DNA from: Pseudomonadota bacterium
GTDB lineage: Bacteria; Pseudomonadota; Gammaproteobacteria; SURF-13
Assembly: GCA_027624315.1 (NCBI GenBank)
Contig: JAQBXX010000004.1
Span: 442-64,441, forward strand
Direction of reading: 5' to 3'
DNA: 64,000 nt
Shown: piece by piece, positions 1,135 through 64,000 of the stretch
Numbering within the stretch: position 1 is the first letter of the stretch
Layout: each line of letters opens with the position of its first letter
Translations under genes and position numbers: made by a program
The notes under the pieces: generated by a model
Told to the model about the DNA's origin: nothing
The model's input: the letters and a program-made list of their open reading frames with translations, nothing else
Database searches by the model: none

Positions 1135-1284
1135 GGGTACCTCTAAAAATGCGTCTTTTGCTCCAATACTGTTGCAGCTTCGCCAGTTTACTATTGGGCT
1201 GCTCACATACTGACGTGTATGCTGCGCTGCTCGACGGCGCTGCGCCTTGTCTTGAAGCAAAATCCATCATTTTTAGAGGCACCC
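1135..1284. mobile_element. MITE family A, copy 1
   Basis: TIR GGGTACCTCTAAAAATG ... CATTTTTAGAGGCACCC; body matches copies at 3720, 21822, 57512. Confidence 0.85.
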
Positions 1285-3701: not shown

Positions 3702-3719
3702 GCGACCCCCTTGTGACTG

Positions 3720-3916
3720 AAGAGCACCTCTAAAAATGCGTCTTTTGCTTCAATACTGCGTTACAGCTTGTCTGCGCTGCTCACATACTAACTTGTATGC
3801 TGTGCTGTACAGGGACGTACGAATGTCGCGGGCGCAGGACGCGCAGGAGCGACCGCTGCTCGCCTGCACTGCGCCTTGTCTTGAAGCAAAATCCATCATT
3901 TTTAGATGGTGCTCTT
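3720..3916. mobile_element. MITE family A, copy 2, carrying a nested 48-bp insert (3807-3854)
   Basis: AAGAGCACCTCTAAAAATG ... CATTTTTAGATGGTGCTCTT; about 50 bp longer than the other copies. Confidence 0.85.
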
Positions 3917-3924
3917 GAAGTATT

Positions 3925-3999: not shown

Positions 4000-4084
4000 A
4001 TATAATTTCGCTACCGCGCGAAGTGAATTCGCGCGGGCGACCCAAGGGGAGAGCTGCGTCCCTGGGTGAGCCCTTTTGCTCTAA

Positions 4085-5034: not shown

Positions 5035-5077
5035 TGAATACTATTTTACCAGAAAGACGCGTGCCCTGACCGGGCGA

Positions 5078-5713: not shown

Positions 5714-5812
5714 TTCCCTTCCCCCTGGAAGGGGGAAGGTGAGGATGGGGGTCGTAGGTCAGGCGTAAACATTGACCCCCACCCCAGCCCTCCCCCTGGA
5801 AGAGGGAGGGGA
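5714..5812. repeat. CCCTCTCCC-type palindromic doublet
   Basis: TTCCCTTCCCCCTGGAAGGGGGAAGG...ACCCCCACCCCAGCCCTCCCCCTGGAAGAGGGAGGG. Confidence 0.7.
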
Positions 5813-5849
5813 TTTATTAAGGGTGAGCCCATGTATTGTGAGCGGTCCT

Positions 5850-7631: not shown

Positions 7632-7799
7632 GGGGTGCTCCTGAATGTTGTGCGGCGCGAGGACGCTATTCCATGAGACTACTATACCTAAAAGTGGGTC
7701 AGCTTGGGGGCGGCGCCGGGCAAAACTTGTATTTCGGCGCCCCATCCCTCAGAATTTCCATGCTTGAATGTACGGGTTTGTCTGGATGGGTATCGGGGT

Positions 7800-9062
7800 A
7801 TGCCGTTATTTTCAGTGGGAGTCAATCACAAGACCGCGCCGGTGGAGATACGCGAACGGGTGGCGTTTGCGCCCGCGCGCCTGCAAGAGGCGCTGCGCGA
7901 GCTGACGGCGCAGCCCGGCGTGCACGAGGCGGCGATCCTCTCCACCTGCAACCGCACCGAGCTCTATTGCCACGCCGACGGTCCCGATGTCAGCGTCATC
8001 AGCGCCTGGCTTGCGCGCCACCACCAGCTTGCGCCGGACGCGATTCTGCCCTATCTCTATACCTTTGACGACCAATCCGCGGTGCGCCATATGCTGCGCG
8101 TGGCGAGCGGGCTCGACTCCATGGTGCTGGGTGAGCCGCAGATTCTGGGGCAGATCAAGGTGGCCTATAAGGATGCGCAGGAGGCGGGCACGGTCGGCGC
8201 GCTGCTGAGCCGTCTGTTTCAGCACACCTTCGCCGCCGCCAAACAGGTACGCACCGATACCGCTATCGGGGCAAGTCCGGTGTCGGTGGCGTTCGCTGCG
8301 GTCACACTGGCGAAACAGATTTTTGCCGACCTGCCCAGCCGCACTGCACTGTTGATCGGCGCGGGCGAGACGATTGAACTGGTGGCGCGCCACCTGCACG
8401 AGAGCGGCATCGGGCGCATGATCGTCGCCAACCGCACCGTGGATCGCGCCCATGCGCTGGCGAGCGAGTTCAACGGTTACGCCATTGCGTTGTCCGAAAT
8501 GCCGGCGCACCTGAGCGAGGCCGACATCGTCATTTCGTCCACCGCCAGCCAGTTGCCGATACTCGGCAAGGGCAGCGTGGAGAGTGCGCTCAAGGCGCGC
8601 AAGCATCGCCCGATGTTCATGGTGGACATCGCCGTGCCGCGTGACATCGAGCCGGAGGTGGGCGGACTTGCCGACGTGTATCTGTATACGGTGGATGATT
8701 TGCAAGAGGTGATTCAGGAAAGTCTAAAGTCGCGCAAGGCCGCCGCCGCGCAGGCCGAGGAGATCATCGACACCCAGGTCACGCACTTCATGGGCTGGCT
8801 GCAATCGCTCTCCGCTGTCTCCACCATTCGCGCCTACCGCAGTGAAGCTGAGCGCACGCGCGACGAGGAAATCGCCAATGCGCGGCGGCTGCTGGCGCAG
8901 GGGCGCGATCCCGAGCAGGTGATGTATCTGCTGGCGCGCTCGCTCACCAACAAACTCACGCACGCGCCCTGCATCCAGATGAAGCAGGCCGGTTTTGAAG
9001 GCCGCACGGAATTGCTGCTCGCCGCGCGCGAATTGTTTGAGCTGAAAGACACTGATAGTTAA
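7800..9062 (+). CDS. hemA: Glutamyl-tRNA reductase
   Basis: [32 protein letters not shown]. Confidence 0.97.
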
Positions 9063-9068
9063 CAACGA

Positions 9069-9167
9069 TCAACGCAAAGACGCTAAGACGCCAAGCAGGC
9101 GAAAGTTCTTTGAGAAGATTATTTTTTGGAAGTTATATACCTTGGCGTCTTAGCGTCTTTGCGTTGA
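9069..9167. repeat. Octamer inverted-array element, copy 1
   Basis: Perfect 27-bp arms TCAACGCAAAGACGCTAAGACGCCAAG / CTTGGCGTCTTAGCGTCTTTGCGTTGA around an AT-rich loop. Confidence 0.9.
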
Positions 9168-9185
9168 GTCGTAAGGAACACAACC

Positions 9186-19942: not shown

Positions 19943-20012
19943 GTAGGTCGGATCAAGCGCAGCGGATCCGACGAAACTGTGTCGGCTCCGCCTCCGGCTT
20001 GAGCCGACCTAC
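19943..20012. repeat. GTAG-type REP doublet
   Basis: GTAGGTCGGATCAAGCGCAGCGGATCCGAC ... GTCGGCTCCGCCTCCGGCTTGAGCCGACCTAC; same family as 41960-42030. Confidence 0.8.
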
Positions 20013-21821: not shown

Positions 21822-21967
21822 TAGGGTGCTTCTAAAAATGATGGATTTTGCTTTAAGACAAGGCGCAGCGCCGTCGAGCAGCGCAGCATGCACGCCAGTA
21901 TGTGAGCAGAGGAGACAAGCTGCAACGCAGTATTGGGGCAAAAGACGCATTTTTAGAGGCGCCCTTA
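21822..21967. mobile_element. MITE family A, copy 3 (opposite orientation, TA flanks)
   Basis: TA-GGGTGCTTCTAAAAATG ... CATTTTTAGAGGCGCCCT-TA; right TA lies in the pstA stop codon. Confidence 0.85.
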
Positions 21968-26543: not shown

Positions 26544-27236
26544 ATGCCGGAATATCTGCCAGAGTATCTGATAGCCCCGTCGATACTGTCGGCGAACTTT
26601 GCGCGTCTGGGCGAAGAAGTCGACAACGTGCTCAAGGCGGGCGCCGACGTCGTGCACTTCGATGTGATGGACAACCATTACGTGCCCAATCTCACCATCG
26701 GTCCGCTGGTGTGCGAGGCGCTGCGCAAGCACGGCGTCACCGCGCCGATCGACGTCCACCTCATGGTGAAGCCGGTGGACCGCATTATCCCCGACTTCGC
26801 CAAGGCCGGCGCCACCTATATTACTTTTCACCCCGAGGCCACCGAACACATCGACCGCTCGCTGCAACTGGTGCGCAGCCTGGGCTGCAAATCCGGCCTG
26901 GTGTTCAATCCGGCCACGCCGCTCGATCACCTGAAATACGTCATGGACAAGATCGACATGATCCTGCTCATGTCGGTCAACCCCGGCTTCGGCGGGCAGA
27001 GCTTCATCCCCGCTACGCTGCCCAAGCTGCGCGAGGCGCGCAAACTGATAGACGCCAGCGGCTATGACATCCGTCTGGAAATAGACGGCGGGGTGAACAC
27101 CGCGAACATCCGCGAGATCGCGGCGGCGGGCGCGGATACCTTCGTCGCAGGCTCGGCCATTTTCAGCACGCCGGATTACAAAGCCACCATAGACAAGATG
27201 CGCGCGGAATTGGCCAAAGCGGGTAAGGCCTCCTAA
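26544..27236 (+). CDS. rpe: Ribulose-phosphate 3-epimerase
   Basis: [36 protein letters not shown]; start approximate. Confidence 0.96.
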
Positions 27237-27242
27237 AAATCC

Positions 27243-27360
27243 AACGCAAAGACGCGAAGACGCAAAGATATAGAATCTAATGATTGTTTCCGCACTTTAA
27301 GCACTCGGTGGCCCACCTTGCCACATGAATTATTCCTTTGCGTCTTCGCGTCTTTGCGTT
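27243..27360. repeat. Octamer inverted-array element, copy 2
   Basis: Perfect 25-bp arms AACGCAAAGACGCGAAGACGCAAAG / CTTTGCGTCTTCGCGTCTTTGCGTT. Confidence 0.9.
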
Positions 27361-27383
27361 AAGGCTTTTTTAAAATTAATCTC

Positions 27384-28085
27384 ATGACATTAAAAATTCC
27401 CAAGATGGTGTTGATAGACCTGGACGGCACGCTGGTCGACAGCGCGCCCGATCTCGCCTATTGCGTGGACGAAACGCTTAAACACCTGGGCCTGCCGCCG
27501 CAAGGATTGGCGCGCGTGCGCGACTGGGTCGGCAACGGCGTGGAAAAGCTCATGCGCCGCGCGCTCACCGGTGACATCGACGGTGAACCTGATGTCGCCC
27601 TGCTCAAACGCGCCATGCCGGTTTTCCTGGAGCTATATGAGGGCAACCTCGCGCAGCGTAGCCATTTATTTCCCGGCATACGCGAAGGTATCGCGCTGCT
27701 TAAGGCGCAAGGCATTGCGTTGGGTTGCGTCACCAATAAAATCGCGCGTTTCACCGAGCCGCTGTTGAAACAGCTCGGCGTGCGCGATGCCTTCGCCATC
27801 GTGGTCAGCGGCGACACGCTGCCACAGAAAAAACCGCATCCCGCGCCGCTGCTGCACGCGGCACAGTTTTTTAACGTGGCGCCGCACGAGTCGCTCATGG
27901 TGGGCGACTCGGTGCACGACGTGGAGGCCGCGCGCGCCGCCGGTTTTCAGGTGGTGTGCGTGAGCTACGGCTACAACCACGGCAGCGACATCCGCGCCGC
28001 CCAGCCTGACGCAGTGATAGATTCTCTGCTAGAATTACCGAAGCTGTTTGATGCGAGTGGCGAGTGGCTAGTAGCGAGTGGCTAG
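27384..28085 (+). CDS. gph: Phosphoglycolate phosphatase
   Basis: [19 protein letters not shown]; rpe-gph-trpE order. Confidence 0.94.
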
Positions 28086-28119
28086 GAAAAACGTTTTTCC
28101 CTCGCCACTGGCTACTCGC
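28053..28119. repeat. Heptamer inverted-array element
   Basis: GCGAGTGGCGAGTGGCTAGTAGCGAGTGGCTAG - GAAAAACGTTTTTCC - CTCGCCACTGGCTACTCGC. Confidence 0.85.
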
Positions 28120-28131
28120 TCCTGCCTTAAT

Positions 28132-29649
28132 ATGACACCGCAACTATTCGACGCCCTGGCCCGTCAGGGCTATAACCGTATCCCGCTGGTACGCGAGGTC
28201 TGCGCTGACCTCGACACGCCGCTCAGCGCCTATCTCAAGCTCGCAAATGAACCGTATTCGTATTTATTCGAATCGGTGCAGGGCGGCGAGAAGTGGGGGC
28301 GTTACTCCATCATCGGTCTGCCGTGCCGCACCATCGTGCGCGTCTCCGGTCACGACATCAGCGTGGAGAAAGACGGCGCGATGACCGAGCAGGTGAAAGA
28401 CAGCGATCCGCTGCGCTGGATTGAGCAATTTCAGGCGCGCTACAAGATCGCCCCCGCTGCCGGACTGCCACGTTTCACCGGCGGCCTGGTCGGCTATTTC
28501 GGCTACGACACGGTGTGCTACATCGAGCCGCGTCTGGCGGGGACGCATAAACCCGACGCGCTCGGCACGCCGGACATTCTGCTCATGGTGTCGGACGAGG
28601 TGGTGGTGTTCGACAACCTGAGCGGCAAGCTTTATCTGGTGATCCACGTCAACCCGGCGCTGGAAGATGCCTGGAGCAGGGCGCAGGCCAGACTCGACGA
28701 GCTCGTCGAACGCTTGCAGCGCGCCACACCGCATCCGCATGACGCCGCGCACGTGCTGCGCGCAGAGGATTTCGTGTCCGGCTTCACGCAGCAGGGTTTT
28801 GAACAGGCCGTCGCGCGCGCCAAGCACTACATCGTGGAAGGCGACATCATGCAGGTGGTGTTGTCGCAGCGCCTCAGCGCGCCGTATGCAGGCAGCGCGC
28901 TGAATTTTTACCGCGCGCTGCGCACGCTGAACCCGTCGCCGTATATGTATTATCTCGATCTCGGCGATTTTCACGTGGTCGGTTCCTCGCCCGAAATTCT
29001 CACGCGCCTGGAAGACGGCATCATCACCGTGCGCCCCATCGCCGGCACGCGCAAGCGCGGTAGCACCGAAGAGGAGGACCGCGCACTGGAGCAGGAACTG
29101 CTCGCCGATCCGAAAGAGCGCGCCGAGCATTTGATGTTGATAGACCTGGGCCGCAACGACGTGGGGCGCGTGGCCGAGACCGGCAGCGTCCAGCTCACCG
29201 AGAAAATGCTGGTGGAGCGCTACTCGCACGTGATGCACATCGTGTCCAACGTCACGGGGCGGTTGCAAAAAGGCATGACGGCGCTGGACGCCCTGCGCGC
29301 CACCTTCCCGGCGGGCACGGTGAGCGGCGCGGCCAAAATCCGCGCCATGGAAATCATTGATGAGCTGGAGCCGGTGAAGCGCGGTATTTACTCCGGCGCG
29401 GTGGGCTATCTCGGCTGGAACGGCAACATGGATACCGCGATTGCGATCCGCACCGCCGTGCTCAAGGACGGCCTGCTGCACGTGCAGGCGGGCGCGGGCA
29501 TCGTCGCCGACTCGGTGCCGCGCACGGAATGGGAGGAGACCATGAGCAAGGCGCGCGCGTTGGTAAGTGCAGCGGTGACGGCATCCAGAGGTCTCGATGT
29601 CACCCCCGTCACAGTGCCGGAGATCGTTGAGGTTAGGCCATGCTCCTGA
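28132..29649 (+). CDS. trpE: Anthranilate synthase component I
   Basis: [32 protein letters not shown]. Confidence 0.96.
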
Positions 29650-30227
29650 TGATCGACAACTACGATTCCTTCACCTACAACCTGGTGCAATATCTGGGCG
29701 AGCTGGGCGCGGACGTGCGCGTGTTCCGCAACGACCGGATATCCACCGCCGAAATCAAAAAACTCGCGCCCGCGCAGATCGTCATCTCGCCGGGGCCGTG
29801 CACGCCGAATGAGGCGGGCGTGTCGGTGGATGCGATCAAGCAGTTCGCGGGGAAAATCCCGCTGCTCGGCGTCTGCCTTGGTCACCAGAGCATCGGCCAG
29901 GCGTTCGGCGGCAAGATCATCCACGCACGCGAACTGATGCACGGCAAGACCTCAATGATTTATCACACGGGCAAGGGTGTGTTTAAAGGTTTGCCGAGCC
30001 CGTTCGAGGCGACGCGCTATCACTCGCTGGTGATTGAAAAAGAAACGCTGCCGGACTGTCTGGAGATCACCGCGTGGACGCAGGACGCGCAAGGCAAGCT
30101 GGACGAGATCATGGGCGTGCGCCACAAGACACTCAATGTTGAGGGTGTACAGTTTCACCCGGAGTCCATACTCACGCAGTATGGGCACGATTTACTGAAG
30201 AATTTTTTACAAGCAAGTGGCGAGTAG
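29640..30227 (+). CDS. trpG: Anthranilate synthase component II (glutamine amidotransferase)
   Basis: [26 protein letters not shown]. Confidence 0.95.
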
Positions 30228-30283
30228 CGAGTGGCTAGGGAAAAACACTTTTACTCGCCACTAGCCACTCGCAACTAGCTACT
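30216..30283. repeat. Heptamer inverted-array element
   Basis: AGTGGCGAGTAGCGAGTGGCTAG - GGAAAAACACTTTT - ACTCGCCACTAGCCACTCGCAACTAGCTACT. Confidence 0.85.
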
Positions 30284-30292
30284 GAGATAACC

Positions 30293-31312
30293 ATGGACAT
30301 GCAAACCGCCATCCGCGCCGTGGTCGAGCGGCGTAATTTATCCGGGGACGAGATGACCGCGGTGATGGAGACCATCATGAGCGGTGCCGCCACCCCGGCG
30401 CAGATCGCAGGCTTTCTTATCGGGCTGCGCATGAAGGGCGAAACTATCGAGGAGATCGCCGCCGCCGCGCGCGTGATGCGCGAGCTGTGCACCAGGGTCG
30501 AGGTGCATGCGGAGCATCTGGTGGACACCTGCGGCACGGGCGGCGACGGCGCACACAGCTTCAATATCTCCACCGCCGCCGCGCTGGTGGCCGCCGCCGC
30601 GGGCGCGGTGGTCGCCAAGCACGGCAACCGCTCGGTGTCCAGTAAGTCCGGCAGCGCCGACGTGCTCGAGGCGGCGGGCGTCAATCTCGATCTCACGCCG
30701 GAGCAGGTCGCGGCGTGCATCGAAAAAATCGGCGTAGGATTTTTGTTCGCGCCCAGACATCACGGCGCGATGAAGCATGCCGCCGCGCCGCGCCGCGAGA
30801 TGGGCGTGCGCACGCTGTTTAATCTGCTCGGGCCGCTCACCAATCCCGCCGGTGCGCGCAACCAGGTGCTCGGTGTGTGGGGCGCCGAGTGGCTGGAGCC
30901 GCTCGCCTCCGCGCTGGCGCGCCTTGGCAGCCGCCATGTGCTGGTGGTCAACGCCGAAGACGGCATGGACGAGATCAGCATCGCCTCGCCCACGCACGTC
31001 GCGGAACTCAAGGACGGCGCCATTGTGACGTATGTCATTGTGCCGGAGGAATTCGGCATGACGCGCACCGACGGTGCGAGTCTGGTGGTGGCGAGTCCGC
31101 AGCAAAGTCTGGATGTCATCCACACGGTGCTGGACGGCACGCCGGGCCCTGCCGCCGACATCGTGGCGCTTAATGCCGGCGCGGCCATTTACGTCGCGGG
31201 TCTCGCGCCGACACTGGAGCAAGGCGTACGCAAGGCGCAGGCCGTGATCGCCAGCGGCGCGGCACGCAAAAAGCTTGCCGCATTAATCAACTTCACTCAG
31301 AATTTTAAATAA
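30293..31312 (+). CDS. trpD: Anthranilate phosphoribosyltransferase
   Basis: [28 protein letters not shown]. Confidence 0.97.
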
Positions 31313-31317
31313 AAAAC

Positions 31318-31469
31318 CAACGCAAAGACGCGAAGACGCAGAGAATACGAAGACGGTATGGTTCAAGAAGTTATGATTAGATCATTTCCGCCTTCTACTC
31401 TGCCTGGAGCAATCCCCAGTGGGACTTTAGCAGCCAAAAAAATCTTTGCGTCTTGGCGTCTTTGCGTTG
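31318..31469. repeat. Octamer inverted-array element, copy 3
   Basis: CAACGCAAAGACGCGAAGACGCAGAGA ... TCTTTGCGTCTTGGCGTCTTTGCGTTG, about 100-bp loop. Confidence 0.88.
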
Positions 31470-31483
31470 AGACTTGTTGATAC

Positions 31484-32311: not shown

Positions 32312-32727
32312 AGGCGCGCGTGAAATGGGTGGAGAACAGCACGTTTGTCGCACAAAGCGGCAGCGGTCACTCCGTGGTGCTGGACGGCCCGCCGGAGGCG
32401 GGCGGGCAGAATCTCGGCGTGCGGCCGATGGAGATGGTGCTGCTGGGGCTGGGCGGCTGCACCGCGTTTGACGTGGTGGACATCCTCAGGAAAAAGCGCG
32501 AGACCATCAGCGATTGCGTGGTCGAGATCAGCGCCGAGCGCGCCGACACCGTGCCCAAGGTGTTCACCAAGATACACCTGCACTACATTGTGCGCGGCAG
32601 CAACGTGAAGGAAGAATCGGTGAAGCGCGCGGTGGAGTTGTCGGCGGAAAAATACTGCTCGGTGTCGATGATGCTGAACAAGAGCGTCGCGATGACGCAC
32701 GACTATGAAATTGTAAAGACTGACTAA
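32308..32727 (+). CDS. OsmC/YhfA-family protein
   Basis: [24 protein letters not shown]. Confidence 0.9.
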
Positions 32728-32730
32728 AAG

Positions 32731-32873
32731 CTCAACGCAAAGTCGCCAAGACGCCAAGACGCCAGGGTTTATGATAAGTAATCCGATTCAACCAAGGTAC
32801 CCATTCTCGCCTGAAATGCCTGCTGCCTTGACCGGCAGCAGTAATGTTTTTGGCGTCTTTGCGTCTTTGCGTT
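32731..32873. repeat. Octamer inverted-array element, copy 4
   Basis: CTCAACGCAAAGTCGCCAAGACGCCAAGACGCCA ... TGGCGTCTTTGCGTCTTTGCGTT. Confidence 0.85.
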
Positions 32874-32897
32874 AGATTTTGTCAGAGCTATAAGCCC

Positions 32898-36172: not shown

Positions 36173-36185
36173 AGGGATACAAAGA

Positions 36186-36267
36186 CTCAACACAAAGCCG
36201 CCAAGACGCGAAGGTTTTTAGGCTATGTCTCTTTGCGTTCTCTGCGCCTTAGCGGCTTTGCGTTGAG
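36186..36267. repeat. Octamer inverted-array element, copy 5 (degenerate)
   Basis: CTCAACACAAAGCCGCCAAGACGCGAAG ... GCGCCTTAGCGGCTTTGCGTTGAG. Confidence 0.75.
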
Positions 36268-36287
36268 CATTTTATAAATTTTAAGCC

Positions 36288-38442: not shown

Positions 38443-38516
38443 TGGGGGATCGTCTAGCGGTAGGACTACGGACTCTGACTCCGTTAACCGAGGTTCGAAT
38501 CCTCGTCCCCCAGCCA
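38443..38516 (+). tRNA. tRNA-Gln(CUG)
   Basis: TGGGGGA/TCCCCCA acceptor stem, ACGGA-CTCTGAC-TCCGT anticodon arm, GGTTCGAATCC, CCA end. Confidence 0.96.
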
Positions 38517-38523
38517 TACAACT

Positions 38524-38598
38524 ACAGTGGCTAGTGGCGAGTGGCTAGTAGCTAGGAACAACCAACCTCGCCACTCGCTACTCGCTACTCGCCACTGT
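38524..38598. repeat. Heptamer inverted-array element (empty)
   Basis: ACAGTGGCTAGTGGCGAGTGGCTAGTAGCTAG - 11 nt - CTCGCCACTCGCTACTCGCTACTCGCCACTGT. Confidence 0.9.
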
Positions 38599-38601
38599 CT
38601 T

Positions 38602-39180
38602 TCAAGTCCACAACGCCTCACCCCGCGCCGCGCGCGCCGCGATCTCCTGCTGAAACGCCGGCGGCCCGAAGCCGAACCACTGCCCCCCCGACGAGTAGAT
38701 AAACGGGCGGACGTGCTTGATGGAATAGGCCTCATACCAGTCCAGCATGCGCTGGTCCGGGTCGCGTCCGGCGGACACCAGCACATCCACCGGTTTGCCG
38801 CGCCAGATCGAGCGGCCGGTGAGCACGATCACGCTGCACTGCTCGGGCTTCATCCACTCCGGCAAATGGCTGCCCGCCTCGGCCCAGCCGCAGAAGAAGA
38901 CGCGGCACGGGTCTTCCGGGCGCTTTTCATGAATGGTGCAGCGATGGCCGTCGCTGTACGGGCAGGGATGGCCGAGGGAGATGTCATTCCCCAGCACGCG
39001 CGTCTTCAGCCAGCCGTCGCAGCACAGCGAGCAGTCGCCGCAGGGGCGGATGGCGGTGGTCGCGGTGGTGGGCGCAGAGGCTGCCGGTGTGGCAGCGCCG
39101 TGGCATTTTTTGTATTTCAGGCCGCTGCCGCACGGGCAGGGGTCGTTGCGTCCGGGGGTGTTCAGGATGGCCTCATCAGC
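38602..39180 (-). pseudogene. SEC-C motif plus Cys-cluster protein lacking an evident start codon
   Basis: Frame reads [28 protein letters not shown]...[13 protein letters not shown]...CP...[17 protein letters not shown]; no in-frame ATG found before the SEC-C motif. Confidence 0.6.
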
Positions 39181-39907: not shown

Positions 39908-39962
39908 GCTTCTTGAGCCTCATGTCACTCGGTCAAGCCCTGGGGATGGTTGCCGAGCAAAC

Positions 39963-40135
39963 TTAGGGAACCTCTGATTTAATCAGAGGTTCCTGCGGTG
40001 CAGGGATGCACCGCCATTTTTCAAACACGGAAGTGTTTGAAAAATGAAGAAAAGCACCATAAATAATCTTATGGCCACGTTTTTGCTTTTCGTGCTCTGA
40101 GAAGTCCAGGATGGACTTATTCAGAGCTTCCTTAG
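39963..40135. mobile_element. MITE-like family B multi-hairpin element
   Basis: Imperfect TIR TAGGGAACCTCTGATTTA / TTATTCAGAGCTTCCTTA; internal hairpins with AGGGAT, GGAA and AGGAT loops. Confidence 0.7.
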
Positions 40136-40210
40136 GTCACGTTGCGTAAGCTACGTGACGGAGCTGCGAAGCCGCGCATCCTGTCAGGCAGCTTACGCAG
40201 CCTGACCTAC
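40133..40210. repeat. GTAG-type REP-like element abutting MITE B
   Basis: TAGGTCACGTTGCGTAAGCT ... AGCTTACGCAGCCTGACCTAC. Confidence 0.6.
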
Positions 40211-40374
40211 AATTGCCCGGTGTGTTGCTTTTTAGCAACACCGACGCAAGAACTGTAGTTTTTTTAATAAAAAGTGTTGCAGGGCCGCTAAAGGCGTGAT
40301 ACGTTTCGCATGTCAATTGACGTCAATCGACACCTGTAACACAACTTTCGATCTTTTCGATAAGGAGATAATGA

Positions 40375-41328
40375 ATGAACAAGAAAATTCTTGCAGTAGC
40401 CATTGCAAGCGCGATGGCAGCCCCGTTCGCGATGGCCGACGAAGGTAGCGTCACCATCAGCGGCAACGTGGGTGCAGCCGTCACCTCGATAAAGAATAAT
40501 GACGACACGAGAGCCTCCGATGTCGATGCGGGCGGTTCAGATCTGTCCATTTCCGGCTCTGAGAACATCGGCAACGGCCTGAAGGCCGTGTTCGTGCTGA
40601 AGAGCTGGCTCAATGTCACTGGAAACGCGGATCAGCCACCAGCTTCCTCGCTGCTGTTTGGTAATAACAAGGACGCCTTCGTGGGTCTGGCCGGTAACTT
40701 CGGCACCATAGCCCTCGGCGCCCATGGCCAGCCCTACAAGACGGCCACCGGCGGTCTGGAACTGTTCGGCGACACCATCGGCGACGCCCGTGGCTCCGTC
40801 ACCAACGGCCAAGGCAGCTTCCACTCCGGCATCGGCGATGCTGTGATCTGGTTCCTGCCCAACATGAACGGCTTCAGCGGCCACGTGCAGATAGGCTCTG
40901 AAAATAACACGAATAACGGCGCACAGAAGCGCGGTGCACAGTTTAATTACAGCAACGGCCCGCTGTATATGACCTATGCCTATGCCGATGATGACGCTAC
41001 GGCCAATGAAACAGGCAACAAGTTCGGCGTCGGCTACGGCTTCGGCGACACCAAGATCAACGTCGTCGCTGAACGCACCAAGGTGCAGGATGGTACAGCC
41101 ATAAGCGCCTACTCCGTGGGCTTGGCGCATAAATTCGGCGCCAACACCGCGAAAATCCAGTTTGCCAGCAACGATTCTGGCGCGGCTGATGTAAGCATCT
41201 GGGCGGTGGGTCTGGATCATGCGTTGTCCAAGCGCACCGGTCTGTACGCTGTGTACGCCGATGGCGACAACCTGGCGTCAACGGAGATGGATAACGGGTT
41301 AGAAGTGGGTATAGGCCACAGCTTCTAA
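40375..41328 (+). CDS. Gram-negative trimeric porin
   Basis: Signal peptide MNKKILAVAIASAMAAPFAMA, GSENIGNGLKA, LDHALSKRT, C-terminal GIGHSF. Confidence 0.9.
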   Translation: MNKKILAVAIASAMAAPFAMADEGSVTISGNVGAAVTSIKNNDDTRASDVDAGGSDLSISGSENIGNGLKAVFVLKSWLNVTGNADQPPASSLLFGNNKDAFVGLAGNFGTIALGAHGQPYKTATGGLELFGDTIGDARGSVTNGQGSFHSGIGDAVIWFLPNMNGFSGHVQIGSENNTNNGAQKRGAQFNYSNGPLYMTYAYADDDATANETGNKFGVGYGFGDTKINVVAERTKVQDGTAISAYSVGLAHKFGANTAKIQFASNDSGAADVSIWAVGLDHALSKRTGLYAVYADGDNLASTEMDNGLEVGIGHSF

Positions 41329-41959: not shown

Positions 41960-42030
41960 GTAGGTCTGTTCAATCCGAAGTCGGAACCGACACACCAAAC
42001 GTCGGATCCGCTGCGCTTGATCCGACCTAC
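41960..42030. repeat. GTAG-type REP doublet
   Basis: GTAGGTC...GTCGGATCCGCTGCGCTTGATCCGACCTAC; right unit is the reverse complement of the 19943 unit. Confidence 0.8.
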
Positions 42031-43289: not shown

Positions 43290-43310
43290 TAGCATAAATA
43301 CCGATAAAAA

Positions 43311-43376
43311 CTCAACGCCAAGCCGCCAAGACGCAAAGCAGGAACAGAAAATAAATCTTTGCGTCTTCGCGTTGAG
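43311..43376. repeat. Octamer inverted-array element, copy 6
   Basis: CTCAACGCCAAGCCGCCAAGACGCAAAG ... CTTTGCGTCTTCGCGTTGAG. Confidence 0.82.
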
Positions 43377-43407
43377 CAGTTAAACATCCTGGCGTTAGAC
43401 TCCAGCA

Positions 43408-49303: not shown

Positions 49304-51652
49304 TCAACTTGCTTCAGCAGGCTGTTCCGGCATCTCATACGGTTCGGCGTAGCCGCATTCTTTCTGCGGGCACACCTTTTCCGTGCCGCGGCGCTTGGTG
49401 GTTTTGATGGTGAGGAGGGGCCACTGGCACTTGGGGCAGGGTTCGACGATGGGCTCGTTCCACACCGCGTAGGTGCATTTTGGGTACGTCGCGCAGGAAT
49501 AAAAAATCTTGCCGTAGCGCGATTTGCGTTTTAACAGATTCCCCGCGTGACACAGCGGGCATTCGACGCCGGTGTCAGCGGGTTTTTCCAGCGGCTCGAT
49601 GTGCTTGCAGTTGGGATAATTGCTGCAGCCGATGAACTTGCCGTAGCGGCCGCGCTTGATGATGAGCTGGCTCTGGCACTCCGGGCAGTTGCGGCCTTCC
49701 ACCACTTCCGGCACGGCGTCAGGGGCATCGTCGAGGTTGCGCGTGTAGTCGCAGTCGGGATAGGCGGTGCAGCCGATGAACTTCCCGCGCCGGCCCAGGC
49801 GGATGGAGAGCGGTTTGCTGCACTTGGGGCAGGCCTCGTCCATGGCCTCCTGCGTGACGTCCTTGCGCAGCACGGTTTCGTCTTTGGTGGTGACCTGTTT
49901 GTGGAACGGTTTCCAGAATTTCTCCATTACCGGCGCCCATTCCTTTTCACCGCGCGCGATGGCGTCGAGCTCGTCCTCAAGCTTGGCGGTAAAGTCGTAA
50001 TCGACGTATTGGGTGAAGTGCTGGGTGAGGAATCTGCTCACCACGCTCCCGACATCGGTGGGGGTGAAGCGGTGTTTTTCGAGCGTGACATACTCGCGCG
50101 CGACCAGCGTGGAGATGATGTTCGCGTAGGTGGAGGGGCGGCCGATGCCGTACTCTTCCAGGGTTTTGACCAGACTCGCCTCGGTGTAACGCGGCGGCGG
50201 CTCGGTGAAGTGCTGTTCGCTGCGGATGGCGAGCAGCGTGACGGTTTCGCCTTCCTTGAGCGGCGGCAGTATGCGCTCGTCGTCTTCCGCTTTGGTGTCG
50301 TCGCTGCCTTCCTGGTACACCGCCATGAAGCCGGGGTCGACGACCGTGGAGCCGTTGGCGCGGAACAGGTGGGTCTCTGCGGTCGCTCCCGGCGTCCTGC
50401 CTCCCGCGACACTAGTACGTCCCTGTACGTCGCCTGCCGCGAGATCGACGCCTACCGTGTCGATGGTGGCGTGTATCATCTGGCAGGCGACGGTGCGTTT
50501 CCAGATCAGTTGATAGAGCTTGATCTGGTCGGGGGAAAGGTGGGCCTTGATGGCTTCCGGCGTGCGCTCGACCGAGGTCGGGCGGATGGCCTCGTGCGCC
50601 TCCTGCGCGTTTTTCGCGCGTGTCTTGTACACCTGCGGCTGTTTGGGCAGGTTGTGTTCGCCGTAACGCTGCGCGATGAAGGCGCGGATTTCGGCAATGG
50701 CCTCCTGCGCAAGATTCACCGAATCGGTACGCATGTAACTGATGAGGCCGACCGCGCCTTCACCGGTGTCCATGCCTTCGTAGAGTTGTTGCGCGGTGCG
50801 CATGGTGCGTTGCGCGCCGAAGCCGAGCTTGCGCGCCGCTTCCTGTTGCAGCGTGGAGGTGGTGAACGGCGCGGCGGGATTGAGTTTTCGGCTTTTCTTT
50901 TCCACCTTGACCACGGTGAGTTTGCCTGCGGCCGCTTTTTCCAGCGCCTTCTGCGCCGCATGCGCGGCAGCGGTGTCGGTGATGCTGAACTGTTCCTGCT
51001 TATTGCCCTGATACACGTTGAGTCTGGCGCTGAAGGCATGCTTGTCTTTGGCGAGATCGGCCTCGATGCTCCAGTATTCGCGCGCCACGAATTTTTCGAT
51101 TTCTTCCTCGCGCTCCACGATCATGCGCAGCGCCGGGCTCTGCACGCGGCCGGCGGAGAGTCCGCGCCGGATTTTGGTCCACAACAGCGGCGAGAGATTG
51201 AAGCCCACCAGATAATCGAGTGCGCGCCGCGCCTGCTGTGCGTTGATGAGCTCCATCGACAGCTCGCGCGGGTGCTGCACCGCCTCGTTTACCGCGCGGT
51301 TGGTAATTTCGTGGAACACCACGCGCTGCACCAGCTTGCCCTTGAGCGCTTTGCGTTCCTTGAGAATTTCGTACAGGTGCCAGGAGATGGCCTCGCCCTC
51401 GCGGTCAGGGTCGGTGGCGAGGTAGAGCGTGTCGGCCTTCTTCATCGCCTTGGCGATGGCGTCCACGTGTTTTTCGTTTTTCTCGATGAGCTGATACTTC
51501 ATGGCGAAGCCGTGCGCCGTGTCCACTGCGCCCTCCTTGGGCAGCAGGTCGCGCACGTGACCGTACGAGGCCAGCACCTCGAAGTCCTTGCCGAGGTACT
51601 TCTTGATGGTCTTGGCCTTGGCCGGCGACTCAACGACGATGAGATGTTTCAT
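49304..51652 (-). CDS. topA: DNA topoisomerase I with zinc-ribbon tail and an in-frame insertion
   Basis: VESPAKAKTI, ATDPDREGEAI, SAGRVQS, ISYMRTDS, C4 zinc ribbons. Confidence 0.97.
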   Translation of the reverse strand: MKHLIVVESPAKAKTIKKYLGKDFEVLASYGHVRDLLPKEGAVDTAHGFAMKYQLIEKNEKHVDAIAKAMKKADTLYLATDPDREGEAISWHLYEILKERKALKGKLVQRVVFHEITNRAVNEAVQHPRELSMELINAQQARRALDYLVGFNLSPLLWTKIRRGLSAGRVQSPALRMIVEREEEIEKFVAREYWSIEADLAKDKHAFSARLNVYQGNKQEQFSITDTAAAHAAQKALEKAAAGKLTVVKVEKKSRKLNPAAPFTTSTLQQEAARKLGFGAQRTMRTAQQLYEGMDTGEGAVGLISYMRTDSVNLAQEAIAEIRAFIAQRYGEHNLPKQPQVYKTRAKNAQEAHEAIRPTSVERTPEAIKAHLSPDQIKLYQLIWKRTVACQMIHATIDTVGVDLAAGDVQGRTSVAGGRTPGATAETHLFRANGSTVVDPGFMAVYQEGSDDTKAEDDERILPPLKEGETVTLLAIRSEQHFTEPPPRYTEASLVKTLEEYGIGRPSTYANIISTLVAREYVTLEKHRFTPTDVGSVVSRFLTQHFTQYVDYDFTAKLEDELDAIARGEKEWAPVMEKFWKPFHKQVTTKDETVLRKDVTQEAMDEACPKCSKPLSIRLGRRGKFIGCTAYPDCDYTRNLDDAPDAVPEVVEGRNCPECQSQLIIKRGRYGKFIGCSNYPNCKHIEPLEKPADTGVECPLCHAGNLLKRKSRYGKIFYSCATYPKCTYAVWNEPIVEPCPKCQWPLLTIKTTKRRGTEKVCPQKECGYAEPYEMPEQPAEAS
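50381..50428 (-). repeat. 48-bp GGA-loop module inside topA
   Basis: GTACAGGGACGTACTAGTGTCGCGGGAGGCAGGACGCCGGGAGCGACC; matches 3807-3854. Confidence 0.85.
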
Positions 51653-51658
51653 ATCAAT

Positions 51659-51861
51659 ACAGTGGCTAGTGGCGAGTAGCTAGTGGCGAGAAAAGGAATG
51701 GATACCTCGTCACCGCCTTTATTAAAGCAAAGCCCGCTGGACGCGGGCTTAAAAGTTTTTGAAGCAACTTTAAGTGCTGCTTAATTTCCATAATTGATAA
51801 AATATCTACACATGTTTATTCGTAAGTTTTGCGTTGCTAGCCACTCGCTACTAGCTACTGT
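51659..51861. repeat. Heptamer inverted-array element with an about 146-bp AT-rich loop
   Basis: ACAGTGGCTAGTGGCGAGTAGCTAGTGGCGAG ... CTAGCCACTCGCTACTAGCTACTGT. Confidence 0.85.
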
Positions 51862-51863
51862 CT

Positions 51864-52343
51864 TTAATGCAGATTCCCCGCCGTTTCGTCGAACACGATG
51901 TTCTTCATCCACGCAAACGCCGCTTCCTGGCCGGGGCGGTTGAACAGCACCATGAGCACGACCCATTTCAATTCTTCCAGGCTGATCTCTTCCGCGCCCA
52001 GGGCCATGACGCGATCGATGACGAGCTCGCGCGCAATCGGATCGAGCACGCCGCTGTGCTGCAGGAATTGCAGGTAGCCGCAACCCGCCACGTCGAGTTT
52101 GGCGATCTCCTGGTCGGTGAAGATGCGCAGCGACGGATTGACCTGTGTGGCATACGGCACGGGCTGATCCTGCAGCAACGCCAGCCCTTCGAGCCAGTCG
52201 AGGGCCTTGTCGATCTCGGTGTGCGGGAAACCGGCCTCCATCAGCTCGAGCTTGAGTGATTCCTGGTCCGGATTGACGTCGACTTCCTCGTCCATATAGC
52301 TTTCGAAGAGATACATCAGCACATCCAGTACGTTTTCCTTCAT
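51864..52343 (-). CDS. smg: Smg/DUF494 protein
   Basis: MKENVLDVLMYLFE, AGF, ELVIDRVMAL, LKWVVLMVLF. Confidence 0.92.
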   Translation of the reverse strand: MKENVLDVLMYLFESYMDEEVDVNPDQESLKLELMEAGFPHTEIDKALDWLEGLALLQDQPVPYATQVNPSLRIFTDQEIAKLDVAGCGYLQFLQHSGVLDPIARELVIDRVMALGAEEISLEELKWVVLMVLFNRPGQEAAFAWMKNIVFDETAGNLH

Positions 52344-56207: not shown

Positions 56208-57524
56208 ATGACGGCCAATACCCGGACGGTGGTGGCGTACACGCTGGTGCAGGTGCTGGAGCAGCGCAAATCGCTGAGCGAGGTGCTCGCGCCGCAATTG
56301 GCGCACATCTCCGCCCCGCGCGAACGCAGCCTCGCGCAGGAGATCTGCTACGGCGTGCTGCGCTGGCACCTGCGGCTGGAGGCCGTGCTGGGGCGCCTGT
56401 TGCGTGCGCCGTTCAAGGAGCGGGACAAGGACATCCATTGCCTGCTGCTCGCCGGTCTGTACCAGCTGATCTATCTGCGCCTGCCCGCGCATGCCGCGGT
56501 GGACGCCACGGTGGAGGCCACGCTCGCGCTCGACAAGGGCTGGGCCAGGGGCGTGGTGAATGCGGTGCTGCGCCATTATCTGCGCGACAGTGAGCGCCTG
56601 CTGGCGGCGGCGGATGCAGACGAGTGCGCGCGCCTCGCGCATCCCACCTGGCTGCTGGAGCTGCTCAAGCAGGCGTGGCCCCACGGCCATAATCTCCCAT
56701 CGTGGCAGGCCATCGCCGCGGCCAATAACGAACGTGCGCCGATGTGCCTGCGCGTGAACATGCGGCGCACCACGCGCGCGGAGTATCTGGCACAGTTGCA
56801 GGCCTCCGGTATCGCCGCGCACGCTACCTTATATAGCCCGCAAGGCGTGACGCTGGAGAAGCCGGCGGGCGTCGAAGGCCTGCCCGGTTTTGCCGCAGGC
56901 GAGATGTCCGTGCAGGACGAGGGCGCGCAGCTTGCTGCCGGCCTGCTTGCGGCCGAGCCCGGCGAGCGCGTGCTGGATGCCTGTAGTGCGCCGGGCGGCA
57001 AGGCCTGCCATATCCTCGAAACCACGCCCGCTCTGCTAGAATTGGTGGCGCTCGACAATTCCGCTGCGCGCCTCGCGCGCGTGCAGGAAAATCTCGATCG
57101 TCTGGGGCTGGCTGCTACGCTGGTGGAGGGCGATGCCGGCGCGCCGCAGACCTGGTGGGACGGCCGGCCGTTTGACCGCATCCTGCTCGATGCACCGTGT
57201 TCGGGCACCGGCGTGATCCGCCGCCACCCCGACATCAAGTGGCTGCGCCGGGCCACGGATATCGCCGCGGCGGCACAGGCACAGCAGCGCTTGTTGCGCG
57301 CACTGTGGCCGTTGCTGAAACCGGGCGGTGTGCTGCTGTATGCAGTCTGTTCGGTGCTGCCGCAGGAGGGCGAACATCAGGTGCGCGACTTTATGGCAGG
57401 ACAGCCGAATGCGCGCGCCGAGCCGCTCGCGCTGCCCGCAGACGCAGAAGGCGGTACTATCCTCACCGGCAGTCACGGGATGGATGGGTTTCATTATGCG
57501 CGCTTACGCAAAGGGTACCTCTAA
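56208..57524 (+). CDS. rsmB: 16S rRNA m5C967 methyltransferase
   Basis: NusB-like N-terminus, VQDEGAQ, DACSAPGGK, DAPCSGTG. Confidence 0.95.
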   Translation: MTANTRTVVAYTLVQVLEQRKSLSEVLAPQLAHISAPRERSLAQEICYGVLRWHLRLEAVLGRLLRAPFKERDKDIHCLLLAGLYQLIYLRLPAHAAVDATVEATLALDKGWARGVVNAVLRHYLRDSERLLAAADADECARLAHPTWLLELLKQAWPHGHNLPSWQAIAAANNERAPMCLRVNMRRTTRAEYLAQLQASGIAAHATLYSPQGVTLEKPAGVEGLPGFAAGEMSVQDEGAQLAAGLLAAEPGERVLDACSAPGGKACHILETTPALLELVALDNSAARLARVQENLDRLGLAATLVEGDAGAPQTWWDGRPFDRILLDAPCSGTGVIRRHPDIKWLRRATDIAAAAQAQQRLLRALWPLLKPGGVLLYAVCSVLPQEGEHQVRDFMAGQPNARAEPLALPADAEGGTILTGSHGMDGFHYARLRKGYL

Positions 57525-57654
57525 AAATGCGTCTTTTGCTCCAATACTGCGTTGCAGCTTGTCTCCGCTGCTCACATACTAACTCGTATGCTGCGCTGCT
57601 CGACGGCGCTGCGCCTTGTCTTGAAGCAAAATCCATCATTTTTAGAGGTACCCT
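57512..57654. mobile_element. MITE family A, copy 4
   Basis: AGGGTACCTCTAAAAATG ... CATTTTTAGAGGTACCCT; contains the rsmB stop. Confidence 0.87.
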
Positions 57655-61818: not shown

Positions 61819-63192
61819 ATGAAAATTATTATTCTAGGCGCGGGCCAGGTCGGTTCCTCAGTCGCCGCCAATCTGGTGAGTGAGGCCAACGACATCACCG
61901 TGGTGGACAGTGACGCCAAACGCCTGCAGGAACTTCAGGTGCGCTTCGATCTGCGCACGGTGCAGGGGCATGCCTCGCATCCGGAGGTATTGCAGCGCGC
62001 CGGGGCGGAGGACGCGGACATCCTCCTCGCCGTCACCAACAGCGATGAAACCAATATGGTGGCCTGTCAGGTGGCGCATACCCTGTTTCATACGCCCACC
62101 AAGATCGCGCGTGTGCGCGCCCAGGAATATCTTTCTTATCCGCAGCTCTTCACGCCGAAGGCGTTTCCCATAGATGTGCTCATCAGCCCCGAGCGGCTCG
62201 TTACCGATTATGTGCAACACCTGATCGAATATCCCGGCGCGCTGCAAGTGCTCGATTTCGCCGGTGGGCGCGTGCAGCTGGTCGCGGTCAAGGCGTACTA
62301 CGGCGGCCCCCTGGTCGGGCGCGAACTGCGCGAACTGCGCGAGCACATGCCGAATGTGGAGACGCGCGTGGTGGCGATCTACCGGCGCGGCCAGTCCGTG
62401 GTGCCGCAGGGCGTCACCGTGATCGAGGCCGATGACGAGGTGTTTTTCATCGCGGCGACCCAGCACTGCCGCGCCGTGATGAGCGAGCTGCGCCGCCTCG
62501 ACCAGCCCTACAAGCGCATCATGATTGCGGGCGGCGGCAACATCGGCAAGCGTCTCGCCACCGTGCTGGAGAATGACTATCAGGTCAAGCTCATTGAGCA
62601 CAATCCGACACGTGCGCGTGCCATTTCCGAGGAACTGCACAACACCACGGTGCTTGAGGGCGATGCCACTGACGAAGAGCTGCTGCTGCAGGAGAATATC
62701 GAGGACATCGACATTTTCTGCGCGCTCACCAACGACGATGAGGACAACATCCTCTCCGCCATGCTTGCCAAGCGCATGGGCGCGCGCAAGGTGATGGCGC
62801 TCATCAATCGCGCGAGCTATGTGGACTTGATGGAAAGCGGCAGCATTGATATTGCGATCTCGCCGCAGCAGGCGATGATCGGAACCCTGCTGGCGCATGT
62901 GCGGCGTGGTGACGTCGCTGTGGTGCATTCGCTGCGGCGCGGCGCGGCAGAGGCCATCGAGGCGGTGGCGCATGGCGACAGCCGTTCCTCCAGGGTGGCG
63001 GGCCGCTCCATCGAAGACATCAAGCTGCCGGCCGGCACCACCATCGGCGCCATTGTGCGCGGCGACGAGGTGATCATCGCGCACCATGACACCGTGATCC
63101 AGCCGGAAGACCATGTGATCCTGTTTCTGGTCGACAAAAAACGCATCTCCGAAGTCGAGCGCCTGTTCCAGGTGGGTGTGACGTTTATTTAA
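61819..63192 (+). CDS. trkA: Trk potassium uptake protein TrkA
   Basis: [30 protein letters not shown]. Confidence 0.96.
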
Positions 63193-63193
63193 T

Positions 63194-63313
63194 GCAGTGG
63201 CGAGTAGCTAGTGGCGAGTTGCGAGTAATGAGGATTTATTGTTCATGGATATTCCTGATGAATAAGCTTGGGAAGCAGTCCCTCGCTACTAGCCACTAGC
63301 TACTAGCCACTGC
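63194..63313. repeat. Heptamer inverted-array element
   Basis: GCAGTGGCGAGTAGCTAGTGGCGAGTTGCGAGT ... CTCGCTACTAGCCACTAGCTACTAGCCACTGC. Confidence 0.87.
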
Positions 63314-63317
63314 CTTT

Positions 63318-64000
63318 ATGCAATTCACCGTCATTCAACGCATCATGGGCCTGCTGCTGATGCTGTTCAGCATCACCATGCTGCCGCCGCTGCTGCTTGC
63401 CTGGTTCCGTTATGACGGGACGATAGAGGCCTTTTTGTGGTCGTACGGCATTACGCTCGTCAGCGGTTTGCTGCTGTGGCTGCCGGTGCGCGCCGTTAAA
63501 AAAGAGCTGCGCCTGCGCGATGGCTTTGTGATCGTGAGCCTGTTCTGGGCGCTGCTCGCCTTGTTCGGTGCGCTGCCGTTCATGTTCGCGCACGATACGG
63601 CAACATTTGCCGACGCCTACTTTGAAACCATGTCCGGTCTGACCACCACCGGCTCCACTGTGCTGGTCGGGCTGGATCAGTTGCCCATATCTATCAATCT
63701 GTGGCGCGGGATTTTGCAGTTTCTGGGCGGCATGGGCATCGTGGTATTGGCGGTGGCCATCCTGCCCATGCTGGGTGTGGGCGGTATGCAGCTTTACAAG
63801 GCCGAAACGCCGGGCCCGATGAAGGACAGCAAACTCACGCCGCGCATCAAGGAAACCGCCAAGGCGCTGTGGTATATCTACGTCGGCCTCGTGGTGTTGT
63901 GTGCCGCCGCCCTCTGGCTCGCGGGCATGACGCCGTTCGACGCCATTTTTCACAGCTTCACGGCGGTGGCGACCGGCGGCTTTTCCACCCACGATGCGGG
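63318..64000 (+). CDS. trkH: Trk potassium uptake permease TrkH (partial, runs off the window)
   Basis: In-frame FETMSGLTTTGST, QFLGGMGI, KLTPRIKETAK, ATGGFS. Confidence 0.93.
   Translation, partial: MQFTVIQRIMGLLLMLFSITMLPPLLLAWFRYDGTIEAFLWSYGITLVSGLLLWLPVRAVKKELRLRDGFVIVSLFWALLALFGALPFMFAHDTATFADAYFETMSGLTTTGSTVLVGLDQLPISINLWRGILQFLGGMGIVVLAVAILPMLGVGGMQLYKAETPGPMKDSKLTPRIKETAKALWYIYVGLVVLCAAALWLAGMTPFDAIFHSFTAVATGGFSTHDA

Follow-up and report, generated by a model that had tools for sequence, protein, structure and literature searches.

The gene for DNA topoisomerase I (topA) within a 64,000-nucleotide (nt) stretch of contig JAQBXX010000004.1 from a gammaproteobacterium of the SURF-13 lineage, hereafter the window, contains in frame a short repeat, a second copy of which lies within a miniature inverted-repeat transposable element (MITE) of the same stretch. 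This is a real, non-chance feature, a palindromic repeat tolerated in frame and bounded by ends that resemble those of repetitive extragenic palindromic (REP) sequences or of the insertion sequence IS200. It can be considered, with good confidence, a 51-nt non-autonomous mobile element composed of two hairpins and probably mobilised in trans as single-stranded DNA, the MITE-borne copy having most likely hitch-hiked with its carrier. Its mobility is shown by the presence or absence of the element at orthologous sites, by the reuse of one point in the gene hsdM by different subfamilies, and by nesting within its own copies and within other repeats.

The 51-nt Unit and Its Boundaries

The 14-mer GTACAGGGACGTAC shared by the two copies occurs exactly twice in the window, against 0.09 occurrences expected from shuffles, and a covariance model of the family recovers these two copies only, with 81.5 and 67.5 bits, the next match scoring 10.4 bits (E=1.1). 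The original prediction, made from the letters of the window, described a 48-bp module of 16 codons at 50381-50428 in topA, which is present in frame on the minus strand (GTACAGGGACGTACTAGTGTCGCGGGAGGCAGGACGCCGGGAGCGACC, read as VQGRTSVAGGRTPGAT), and a relative at 3807-3854 (+), likewise found within MITE copy 2 and in none of the other three MITE copies. The length of the module had to be corrected. The true unit comprises 51 nt, or 17 codons, with four additional bases at the 5' end (CGAC in topA, TGCT in the MITE) and with ...GAGCGAC at the other end, because the MITE alignment shows a net gain of 51 and the TopA protein encoded by a closely related locus, L119, is shorter by exactly 17 codons.

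A duplication of a 3-bp target, GCT, had also been proposed, which would make the element a 48-bp MITE-like module. In MITE copy 2 the 48-mer is indeed flanked by GCT at either end, but an additional C>T change in the MITE would then be required, and the empty topA site of L119 (GCAGG^AGCAGAG, the caret marking the insertion point) shows no CGAC and no repeat. A duplication is likewise missing at the hsdM and nested sites, and two of the four extra 5' bases, 1 and 3, pair with bases 21 and 19 of the element, so that this anatomy is very hard to credit. No target duplication was present in any of the four kinds of comparison between empty and filled sites, namely topA, MITE, hsdM and nested, and the resolved empty sites are of the form G^YG: CAGG^(C/A)G in topA, GCTG^CG in the MITE, ACGG^TGG or CGG in hsdM, and CCCG^CG in the nested copies. 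The element has repeatedly been inserted precisely between G and YG without duplicating its target.

The Copy in topA

Copy 1 of the element occupies 50382..50432 on the minus strand (CGAC-GTACAGGGACGTAC-TAGT-GTCGCGGGAGGCAGGACGCCGGGAGCGAC), and its reading within topA (49304..51652, minus strand, 782 amino acids) is DVQGRTSVAGGRTPGAT. The topA product matches entries of PDB with E down to 9e-147, a gap in the matched structures facing the insert. A scan for TopA relatives gave 80 loci, in the closest of which, the 93% identical L119, VDLAAG^AETHLF corresponds to VDLAAG-DVQGRTSVAGGRTPGAT-AETHLF of the window, a difference of exactly 17 codons; at the DNA level the same comparison sets GCAGG^AGCAGAG against GCAGG-CGACGTAC...GAGCGAC-CGCAGAG. 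Almost none of the 80 orthologues has the segment, nor do the solved structures, and the alignment with homologues thus bears out the predicted insertion.

Its position, in frame and within a loop, would also suit a native part of TopA or one selected at the protein level, yet such a part would have to be missing from a 93%-identical orthologue, from nearly all others and from the solved structures. Moreover, the same DNA also occurs in non-coding regions, in four frames and in both orientations, and its conservation spans all three codon positions, which indicates a constraint at the nucleotide level. A native origin of the segment can be given practically no weight.

According to an alignment to 4RUL, in which the catalytic Tyr has chain index 321 (= Y319), the insert falls at about residues 418-426 of E. 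coli TopA, presumably a beta-hairpin in domain II as in the 67-kDa structure. The outcome of the insertion would be a 17-residue loop in this beta-hairpin, predicted to be remote from the active site. An independent, partly decayed copy is located only a few codons from the window's site in the TopA of L195 (about 70% identity; a metagenome-assembled genome, MAG, labelled Burkholderiales), at about 2700-2770, with the sequence TGAC-GTACAGGGAAGTAC-CAAT-GCCGC...GCGGC and a compensated change in the outer stem.

Two Hairpins Kept by Compensatory Changes

Hairpin 1 is formed by nt 1-22 of the element (50411..50432 in the topA copy, minus strand), with the pairs 1:21 and 3:19, a GTAC/GTAC stem, and the loop AGGGAC. 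Hairpin 2, nt 23-51 (50382..50410, minus strand), is composed of an outer stem GTCGC/GCGAC, a GGGA/GGGA internal loop, an inner stem GGC/GCC, and the loop AGGAC. Covariation was analysed in the 58 distinct copies from which the covariance model was also built. Pair 1:21 of hairpin 1 (Y1:R21) is UA in 39 copies and CG in 19, with none unpaired, and pair 3:19 (M3:N19) is AU in 30 and CG in 15, thus Watson-Crick in 45 of the 58. One pair of the inner stem of hairpin 2 appears as GC (38 copies), AU (9) or CG (9), a compensatory pattern, and this stem of 3-4 bp, closed by the loop AGGAY, has the variants GGC/GCC, GAC/GTC, AGC/GCT, GCC/GGC, and GCGC/GCGC. The hairpin 1 stem and the hairpin 2 outer stem were fixed by the search pattern, and their variants come from copies found by other routes: GCAC/GTGC, GGTC/GACC, GGGC/GCCC, and GGAC/GTCC for the former, GCCGC/GCGGC (L195) and CCTGC/GCAGG (Marinobacterium) for the latter, again compensated. 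Both hairpins are kept by compensatory changes. Copies that seemed to consist of hairpin 2 alone turned out to have variant hairpin 1 stems.

While the stems vary, A(N)GGA is kept in the loops, with about 7 of some 120 hairpin 2 loops devoid of GGA, and each 51-nt unit contains four GGA. Four of the six reading frames are free of stops, and all six in the GAAT subtype. Long variants, with insertions inside hairpin 2, contain extra GGA hairpins or other REPs and no open reading frame (ORF).

Distribution of the Family

The original prediction expected further genomic copies; the window has only the two, and many exist in other genomes. A 23-position pattern, GTACAGGGACGTACNNNTGTCGC, run against a collection of species-representative genomes matched at least 118 loci. 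The carriers among the matches listed are Acidiferrobacterales, Sulfurifustaceae, Ca. Muproteobacteria, Sedimenticola, Thiohalophilus, Methylomonas/Methylovulum (Methylococcales), Woeseiaceae, Porticoccaceae, Chromatiaceae, Marinobacterium, and a few MAGs labelled otherwise. In 703 kb of these loci the covariance model gave 148 matches. A search of plasmids yielded one copy, at 3584-3635 of the 11-kb plasmid NZ_CP072857.1 of Lonsdalea populi (L288, 1501-1552), antisense in an annotated DNA primase gene and with a GGAC/GTCC stem in hairpin 1. Carriers available in culture include Marinobacterium sedimentorum, M. profundum, Sedimenticola hydrogenitrophicus SB48, Pseudohalioglobus lutimaris and Lonsdalea populi N-5-1. 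IMG/VR viral contigs and complete E. coli genomes yielded no copy.

Rfam, searched with both E-value and gathering thresholds with the topA site, the whole window and 14 loci, has no family corresponding to the element, and a literature search with the 14-mer in either orientation returned nothing. The family thus lacks an Rfam entry, and we could not find a description of it in the searchable literature.

Insertion Sites

The flanks of the element are weakly conserved: G precedes it in 57 of 104 copies (55%), and it is followed by C in 82 of 104 (79%) and then by G in 59 of 104 (57%). Many copies are located inside structured repeats, such as the MITE centre, palindromes built of heptamer repeats and, in Woeseiaceae, the loops of REP-like hairpins. 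The element also nests within itself, an inverted copy being interrupted between hairpin 1 and hairpin 2 at CCCG^CGAC, and head-to-head doublets were found in L011, L033, and L003. In all of the 10 copies inspected for this feature, from Marinobacterium, Woeseiaceae, Pseudohalioglobus and others, the element is immediately preceded by the T-tract of a same-strand intrinsic terminator.

Tandem arrays or partial duplications of sub-parts of the element are present in L012 (1080-1295), L020 (2990-3160), L113 (1-140), L206, L112 (6150-6260), and L042. Every unit boundary in them reads ...GAC^GTAC or ...GACC^GTAC, a hint at cutting and joining next to GTAC.

Host Genes

At least 29 of the 118 copies lie in clear coding frames, and all four stop-free frames are used. 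Frames were called from GC3 and the hosts confirmed by Pfam; a G1-C1 strand statistic was dropped after it had misassigned topA itself. Sense hosts with the element read in the VQGRTSVAGG frame are MurC, ClpB, RecG, PcnB, a CheA-like protein, Lon, IleRS, TypA, ValRS, ThiC, and sulfite reductase, the last with the element in L056 and without it in the window; RsmB contains it in another sense frame. Antisense hosts are PolA, an ABC ATPase, a MiaB-like enzyme, and CoaE. About 20 of the genic copies are in sense and 9 in antisense orientation, counts that are partly non-independent. Since the element is 17 codons long and stop-free in four of six frames, insertions into Gly-rich surface loops of proteins are tolerated and retained, whichever way the element points.

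The insertion point in hsdM is a hypervariable Gly-rich linker, empty in most of 80 orthologues (GACGG^TGGC). The same point has been taken by three subfamilies, one with TGAC/TAAT and the rare loop ACGA, one with CGAT/AAGT, and one with GCAC...GTGC. In hsdM of L061 the copy is longer by 48 nt, the reading frame being kept, and the added sequence forms two further GGA hairpins. In L062 the element occurs seven times within a single CheA-like ORF with three Hpt domains (3537-8000), and hairpin 1 is expanded internally by 18 nt in three of these copies.

The MITE-Borne Copy

Copy 2 of the element (3803..3853, plus strand; TGCT-GTACAGGGACGTAC-GAAT-GTCGCGGGCGCAGGACGCGCAGGAGCGAC), stop-free in six frames, occupies the central single-stranded junction of MITE copy 2, a composite at 3722..3913 (+) placed between the start of a minus-strand gene and a tRNA gene. 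MITE copies 1 (1135..1284, plus strand), 3 (21824..21966, minus strand), and 4 (57513..57653, plus strand) are without insert, and the empty site is seen in copy 1 as TATGCTG^CGCTGCTCG. In the alignment of the four, a net 51 columns, TGCT...GAGCGAC, lie between TATGCTG and CGCTGCTCG and are absent from these three. The MITE family is about 150 nt long, has the terminal inverted repeats GGGTACCTCTAAAAATG / CATTTTTAGAGGYACCC, and folds into a long hairpin (z = -7.7); copy 4 folds into a long terminal stem with a central multibranch.

The MITE family is also present in relatives (L003, L073, L102, L111), where the 51-nt element is found at this internal site and a further copy of it at a second site. 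The composite of MITE and element, with the same position and the variant GCGC-AGGAC-GCGC, recurs in relatives at different loci, two to three per genome. Most likely the nesting happened once and the composite MITE was then amplified, and the copy at 3803-3853 therefore probably hitch-hiked, with no insertion of its own at that place. The claim that the module moves independently of the MITE consequently holds for the family and probably fails for this copy.

Proposed Mechanism

An HUH/Y1 enzyme that recognises hairpins, such as the TnpA of IS200/IS605 or a REP-associated TnpA, would act in trans and move the element in single-stranded form. With the C-rich strand taken as the active one, the flank would be CG, hairpin 2 would serve as the left end and hairpin 1 as the right end, and the terminal tetranucleotide of the right end would pair with the tetranucleotide across the foot of the hairpin. 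The target would be single-stranded as well, as in the loops of palindromes, the centres of MITEs, and the DNA just past the T-tracts of terminators. An enzyme of this type is favoured because the ends are precise, no target is duplicated, the conserved flank is one-sided, there are two subterminal hairpins, and pairing occurs at the hairpin foot, features known from IS200/IS605 ends and, more loosely, from REPs (PMC6006769). A target in single-stranded DNA agrees with the frequent insertion into hairpin loops and next to terminators. According to the end rule of IS200/IS605, a guide tetranucleotide at the hairpin foot pairs with the final tetranucleotide of the right end, and a target tetranucleotide flanks the left end (PMC6006769).

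Several observations weigh against this mechanism or are left unexplained by it. No transposase could be tied to the element by tblastn with approximate sequences of the IS608 TnpA and of an E. coli REP-associated tyrosine transposase (RAYT), and no autonomous long version appeared among the variants inspected. No position of the element covaries specifically with the flanking bases in the manner of a guide-target rule, mutual information being diffuse and at most 0.27 bits. The only Y1/RAYT gene in 1.2 Mb of collected loci, found near two copies of the element in L004 and L036, has GTAG REPs of its own, and its link to the element was rejected. Furthermore, pure selfishness gives no account of the near-invariance of hairpin 1 across orders, of the GGA in the loops, found also in the extra hairpins of the long variants, or of orthologous copies that diverge less than the coding DNA around them.

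The RAYT gene of L036 (2000-2770; also in L004) is accompanied by three GTAGGATGGGCAAAGC-type REPs and represents an insertion into the hsdM 3' end; in L036 this insertion came with a 48-nt duplication of the end of hsdM (1947-1994 and 2716-2763), a further reason for rejecting the link.

The element might instead be moved by a site-specific recombinase with a short shared core, either a DEDD enzyme of the IS110 type or a tyrosine recombinase. The two YG dinucleotides, one opening the element and one just past its 3' end, would then represent the crossover core of a circular intermediate and of the target. YG is found at both junctions in all the resolved pairs (G^CG...GAC^CG in topA, G^TG...GAC^CG in the MITE, G^TG...GAC^CG or TG in hsdM), and insertion is orientation-specific and free of target-site duplication. 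Some IS110-family elements favour palindromic repeats as targets. Nevertheless, 51 nt are too short for the non-coding RNA or the long recombination sites on which such enzymes depend, base 1 belongs to the element's own structure, as its covariation with an internal base shows, and no DEDD or tyrosine recombinase was found nearby. Recombinase-driven movement is accordingly improbable, and mobilisation by a hairpin-recognising HUH/Y1 enzyme remains the preferred reading.

GGA Hairpins and Conservation in Place

The conservation of hairpin 1 and of the loops would be accounted for if the element were kept as a mobile module binding CsrA/RsmA, tethering or titrating a CsrA dimer and bringing host transcripts under Csr control, a reading that we regard as unlikely but not negligible. 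A transcript of the G-rich sense would show two consensus GGA hairpins about 25 nt apart and two more GGA in the internal loop. Hairpin 1, ACAGGGACGU, agrees with the RsmE consensus (A/U)CANGGANG(U/A) at 10/10 positions and with RUACARGGAUGU, the CsrA consensus obtained by systematic evolution of ligands by exponential enrichment (SELEX), at 11/12 (consensus sequences from PMC6849547). There are four GGA per 51 nt, and GGA is retained while the stems change. The long variants add only more GGA-loop hairpins, the 48 nt within hsdM of L061 being in frame. In Muproteobacteria, 57-nt tandem arrays combine hairpin 1 with another GGA hairpin, one array being followed by an intrinsic terminator, and the L012 array gives a weak match to RsmW of the Csr/Rsm clan.

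Orthologous copies in sense orientation also diverge less than their flanking coding DNA. In four orthologous gene pairs the element differs by 8%, and the 400 nt of coding DNA around it by 25% (Fisher p=5e-6), the 8% being counted only over positions free of the search pattern and the pairs themselves having been found through the pattern, so that the comparison is partly biased. It has the further caveat that re-insertion at the same site clearly happens; the rare loop variant common to the hsdM clade argues for inheritance.

On the other side, the antisense copies in real genes (PolA, CoaE, the ABC ATPase, the MiaB-like enzyme) would give mRNA without GGA, transcription would rarely reach the many copies situated directly behind terminators, and sense copies outnumber antisense ones in genes only modestly. 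With 16.6 bits against a gathering score of 52, the Rfam match is far under the threshold, some 7 of about 120 hairpin 2 loops do without GGA, and one genome has the arrays at four different loci, so that they are not a single small RNA (sRNA) gene. A search for csrA in the 1.2 Mb of collected loci found none, a result that is uninformative. That selection maintains the element as a CsrA-binding cassette, planting Csr/Rsm sites or sponge capacity in transcripts, the coding regions of essential genes included, is doubtful. If it were true, tandem arrays of these hairpins would be one route to sponge RNAs of the Rsm type, and if CsrA were bound, the element would constitute a transposable site for a post-transcriptional regulator, of which we know no earlier case.

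A separate run of very stable stacked hairpins (z = -7.9) is located at 39960-40135 (+) of the window, in the intergenic gap 39908-40375. Its GGA loops are GCGGUGCA-GGGA-UGCACCGC, ...ACA-CGGA-AGU..., and GUCC-AGGAU-GGAC. The run has no Rfam match and no promoter-like site, and it could be a Csr/Rsm-like sRNA or just terminators.

Other Repeats

Intergenic inverted pairs of tandem heptamers (GTGGCGA / GTAGCTA and complement) are present in the window at 8-47, 28045-28132, 30198-30285, 38515-38605, 51650-51868, and 63185-63320. The pair next to topA begins at its start codon (51650-51693), the partner lying at 51829-51868. Comparable structures built of different heptamers exist in other genomes, and the 51-nt element is often found at their centre. 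A second family of heptamer palindromes (AACGCAAAGACGCGAAGACGCAAAG and CTTTGCGTCTTCGCGTCTTTGCGTT) is represented by six inverted pairs, 60-130 nt apart, at 9062-9175, 27234-27370, 31310-31478, 32725-32883, 36180-36274, and 43305-43391. Two perfectly complementary 31-nt copies of GTAGGTCGGATCAAGCGCAGCGGATCCGACG, at 19943-19973 and 42000-42030, have the classical REP form (GTAG and then a hairpin), which suggests a REP/RAYT system in the same genome distinct from the 51-nt element. The tandem glycine riboswitch at 3935-4110 of L113 (58 and 42 bits) has no relation to the element.

Significance and Comparison with Known Systems

The element crosses the boundaries of orders with almost unchanged sequence. 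With its 51 nt, two hairpins and exact junctions, it offers a minimal substrate for finding a new enzyme of hairpin-directed transposition, and the plasmid copy of Lonsdalea populi is a handy experimental handle in a cultured enterobacterium. For annotation it is a nuisance, as 17-residue loops in TopA, PolA, ClpB, Lon, and aminoacyl-tRNA synthetases hamper the annotation and alignment of proteins from MAGs.

Classical MITEs have terminal inverted repeats and target-site duplications, whereas the ends of the element (YGMY... / ...GAGCGAC) are not inverted repeats of each other, each hairpin being confined to one half of the unit, and no duplication is made. Tiny mobile elements of two hairpins, intergenic and in frame in protein genes, are known from fungal mitochondrial DNA as double-hairpin elements and GC clusters; these are organellar, unrelated in sequence, and possibly different in mechanism. 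Among Gammaproteobacteria, QMITE1 and QMITE2 of Coxiella are small repeats that overlap ORFs and yield peptides or sRNAs (PMC5896051). The QMITEs differ from the element in their size of 150-400 bp, in their terminal inverted and direct repeats, and in their location mostly at the 3' ends of genes.

With REP sequences and REPINs, the element shares the form of short, structure-defined, high-copy hairpins, a motif at the hairpin foot, compensating stems, and an arrangement in doublets and clusters (PMC6006769). The hallmark of REP/RAYT systems is GT[AG]G located 0-2 nt 5' of a single hairpin (PMC6006769), in contrast to YGMY, a GTAC stem and two different hairpins here. Moreover, REPs and REPINs are largely extragenic, while many copies of the element (at least 29 of 118) are intragenic. 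Its likeness to IS200/IS605 consists in subterminal hairpins at both ends, the absence of target duplication, the one-sided flank, and the preference for single-stranded places. The pairing of a terminal tetranucleotide with the hairpin foot is seen as well, although it may just as well be no more than a lengthening of the stem; unlike in IS200/IS605, no tnpA/tnpB partner or long version was found, and the conserved flank is only CG. As in the Csr/Rsm sponges (CsrB, RsmX/Y/Z/W; clan CL00106), there are A(N)GGA loops, C:G closure, about one GGA per 13 nt, and arrays, but the element forms no transcription unit, occurs in either orientation and inside genes, and scores below every Rfam threshold.

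The original prediction likened the repeat to Rickettsia palindromic elements (RPEs), and as a way of working this analogy holds. RPEs are dispersed palindromic repeats kept in frame in unrelated housekeeping genes, where they add a peptide at tolerated places (PMC10969869), and the 51-nt element is likewise found in frame in unrelated protein genes. RPEs measure about 100-150 bp, consist of one long palindrome, comprise several families, and are confined to Rickettsia, whereas the element has 51 nt and two separate hairpins, is read in four frames and in either orientation, and occurs across several orders of free-living Gammaproteobacteria. Selfish repeats that survive in frame in essential genes have been known mainly from Rickettsia; here they appear in free-living, environmentally important oxidisers of sulfur, iron and methane and their relatives, in the form of an element three times smaller.

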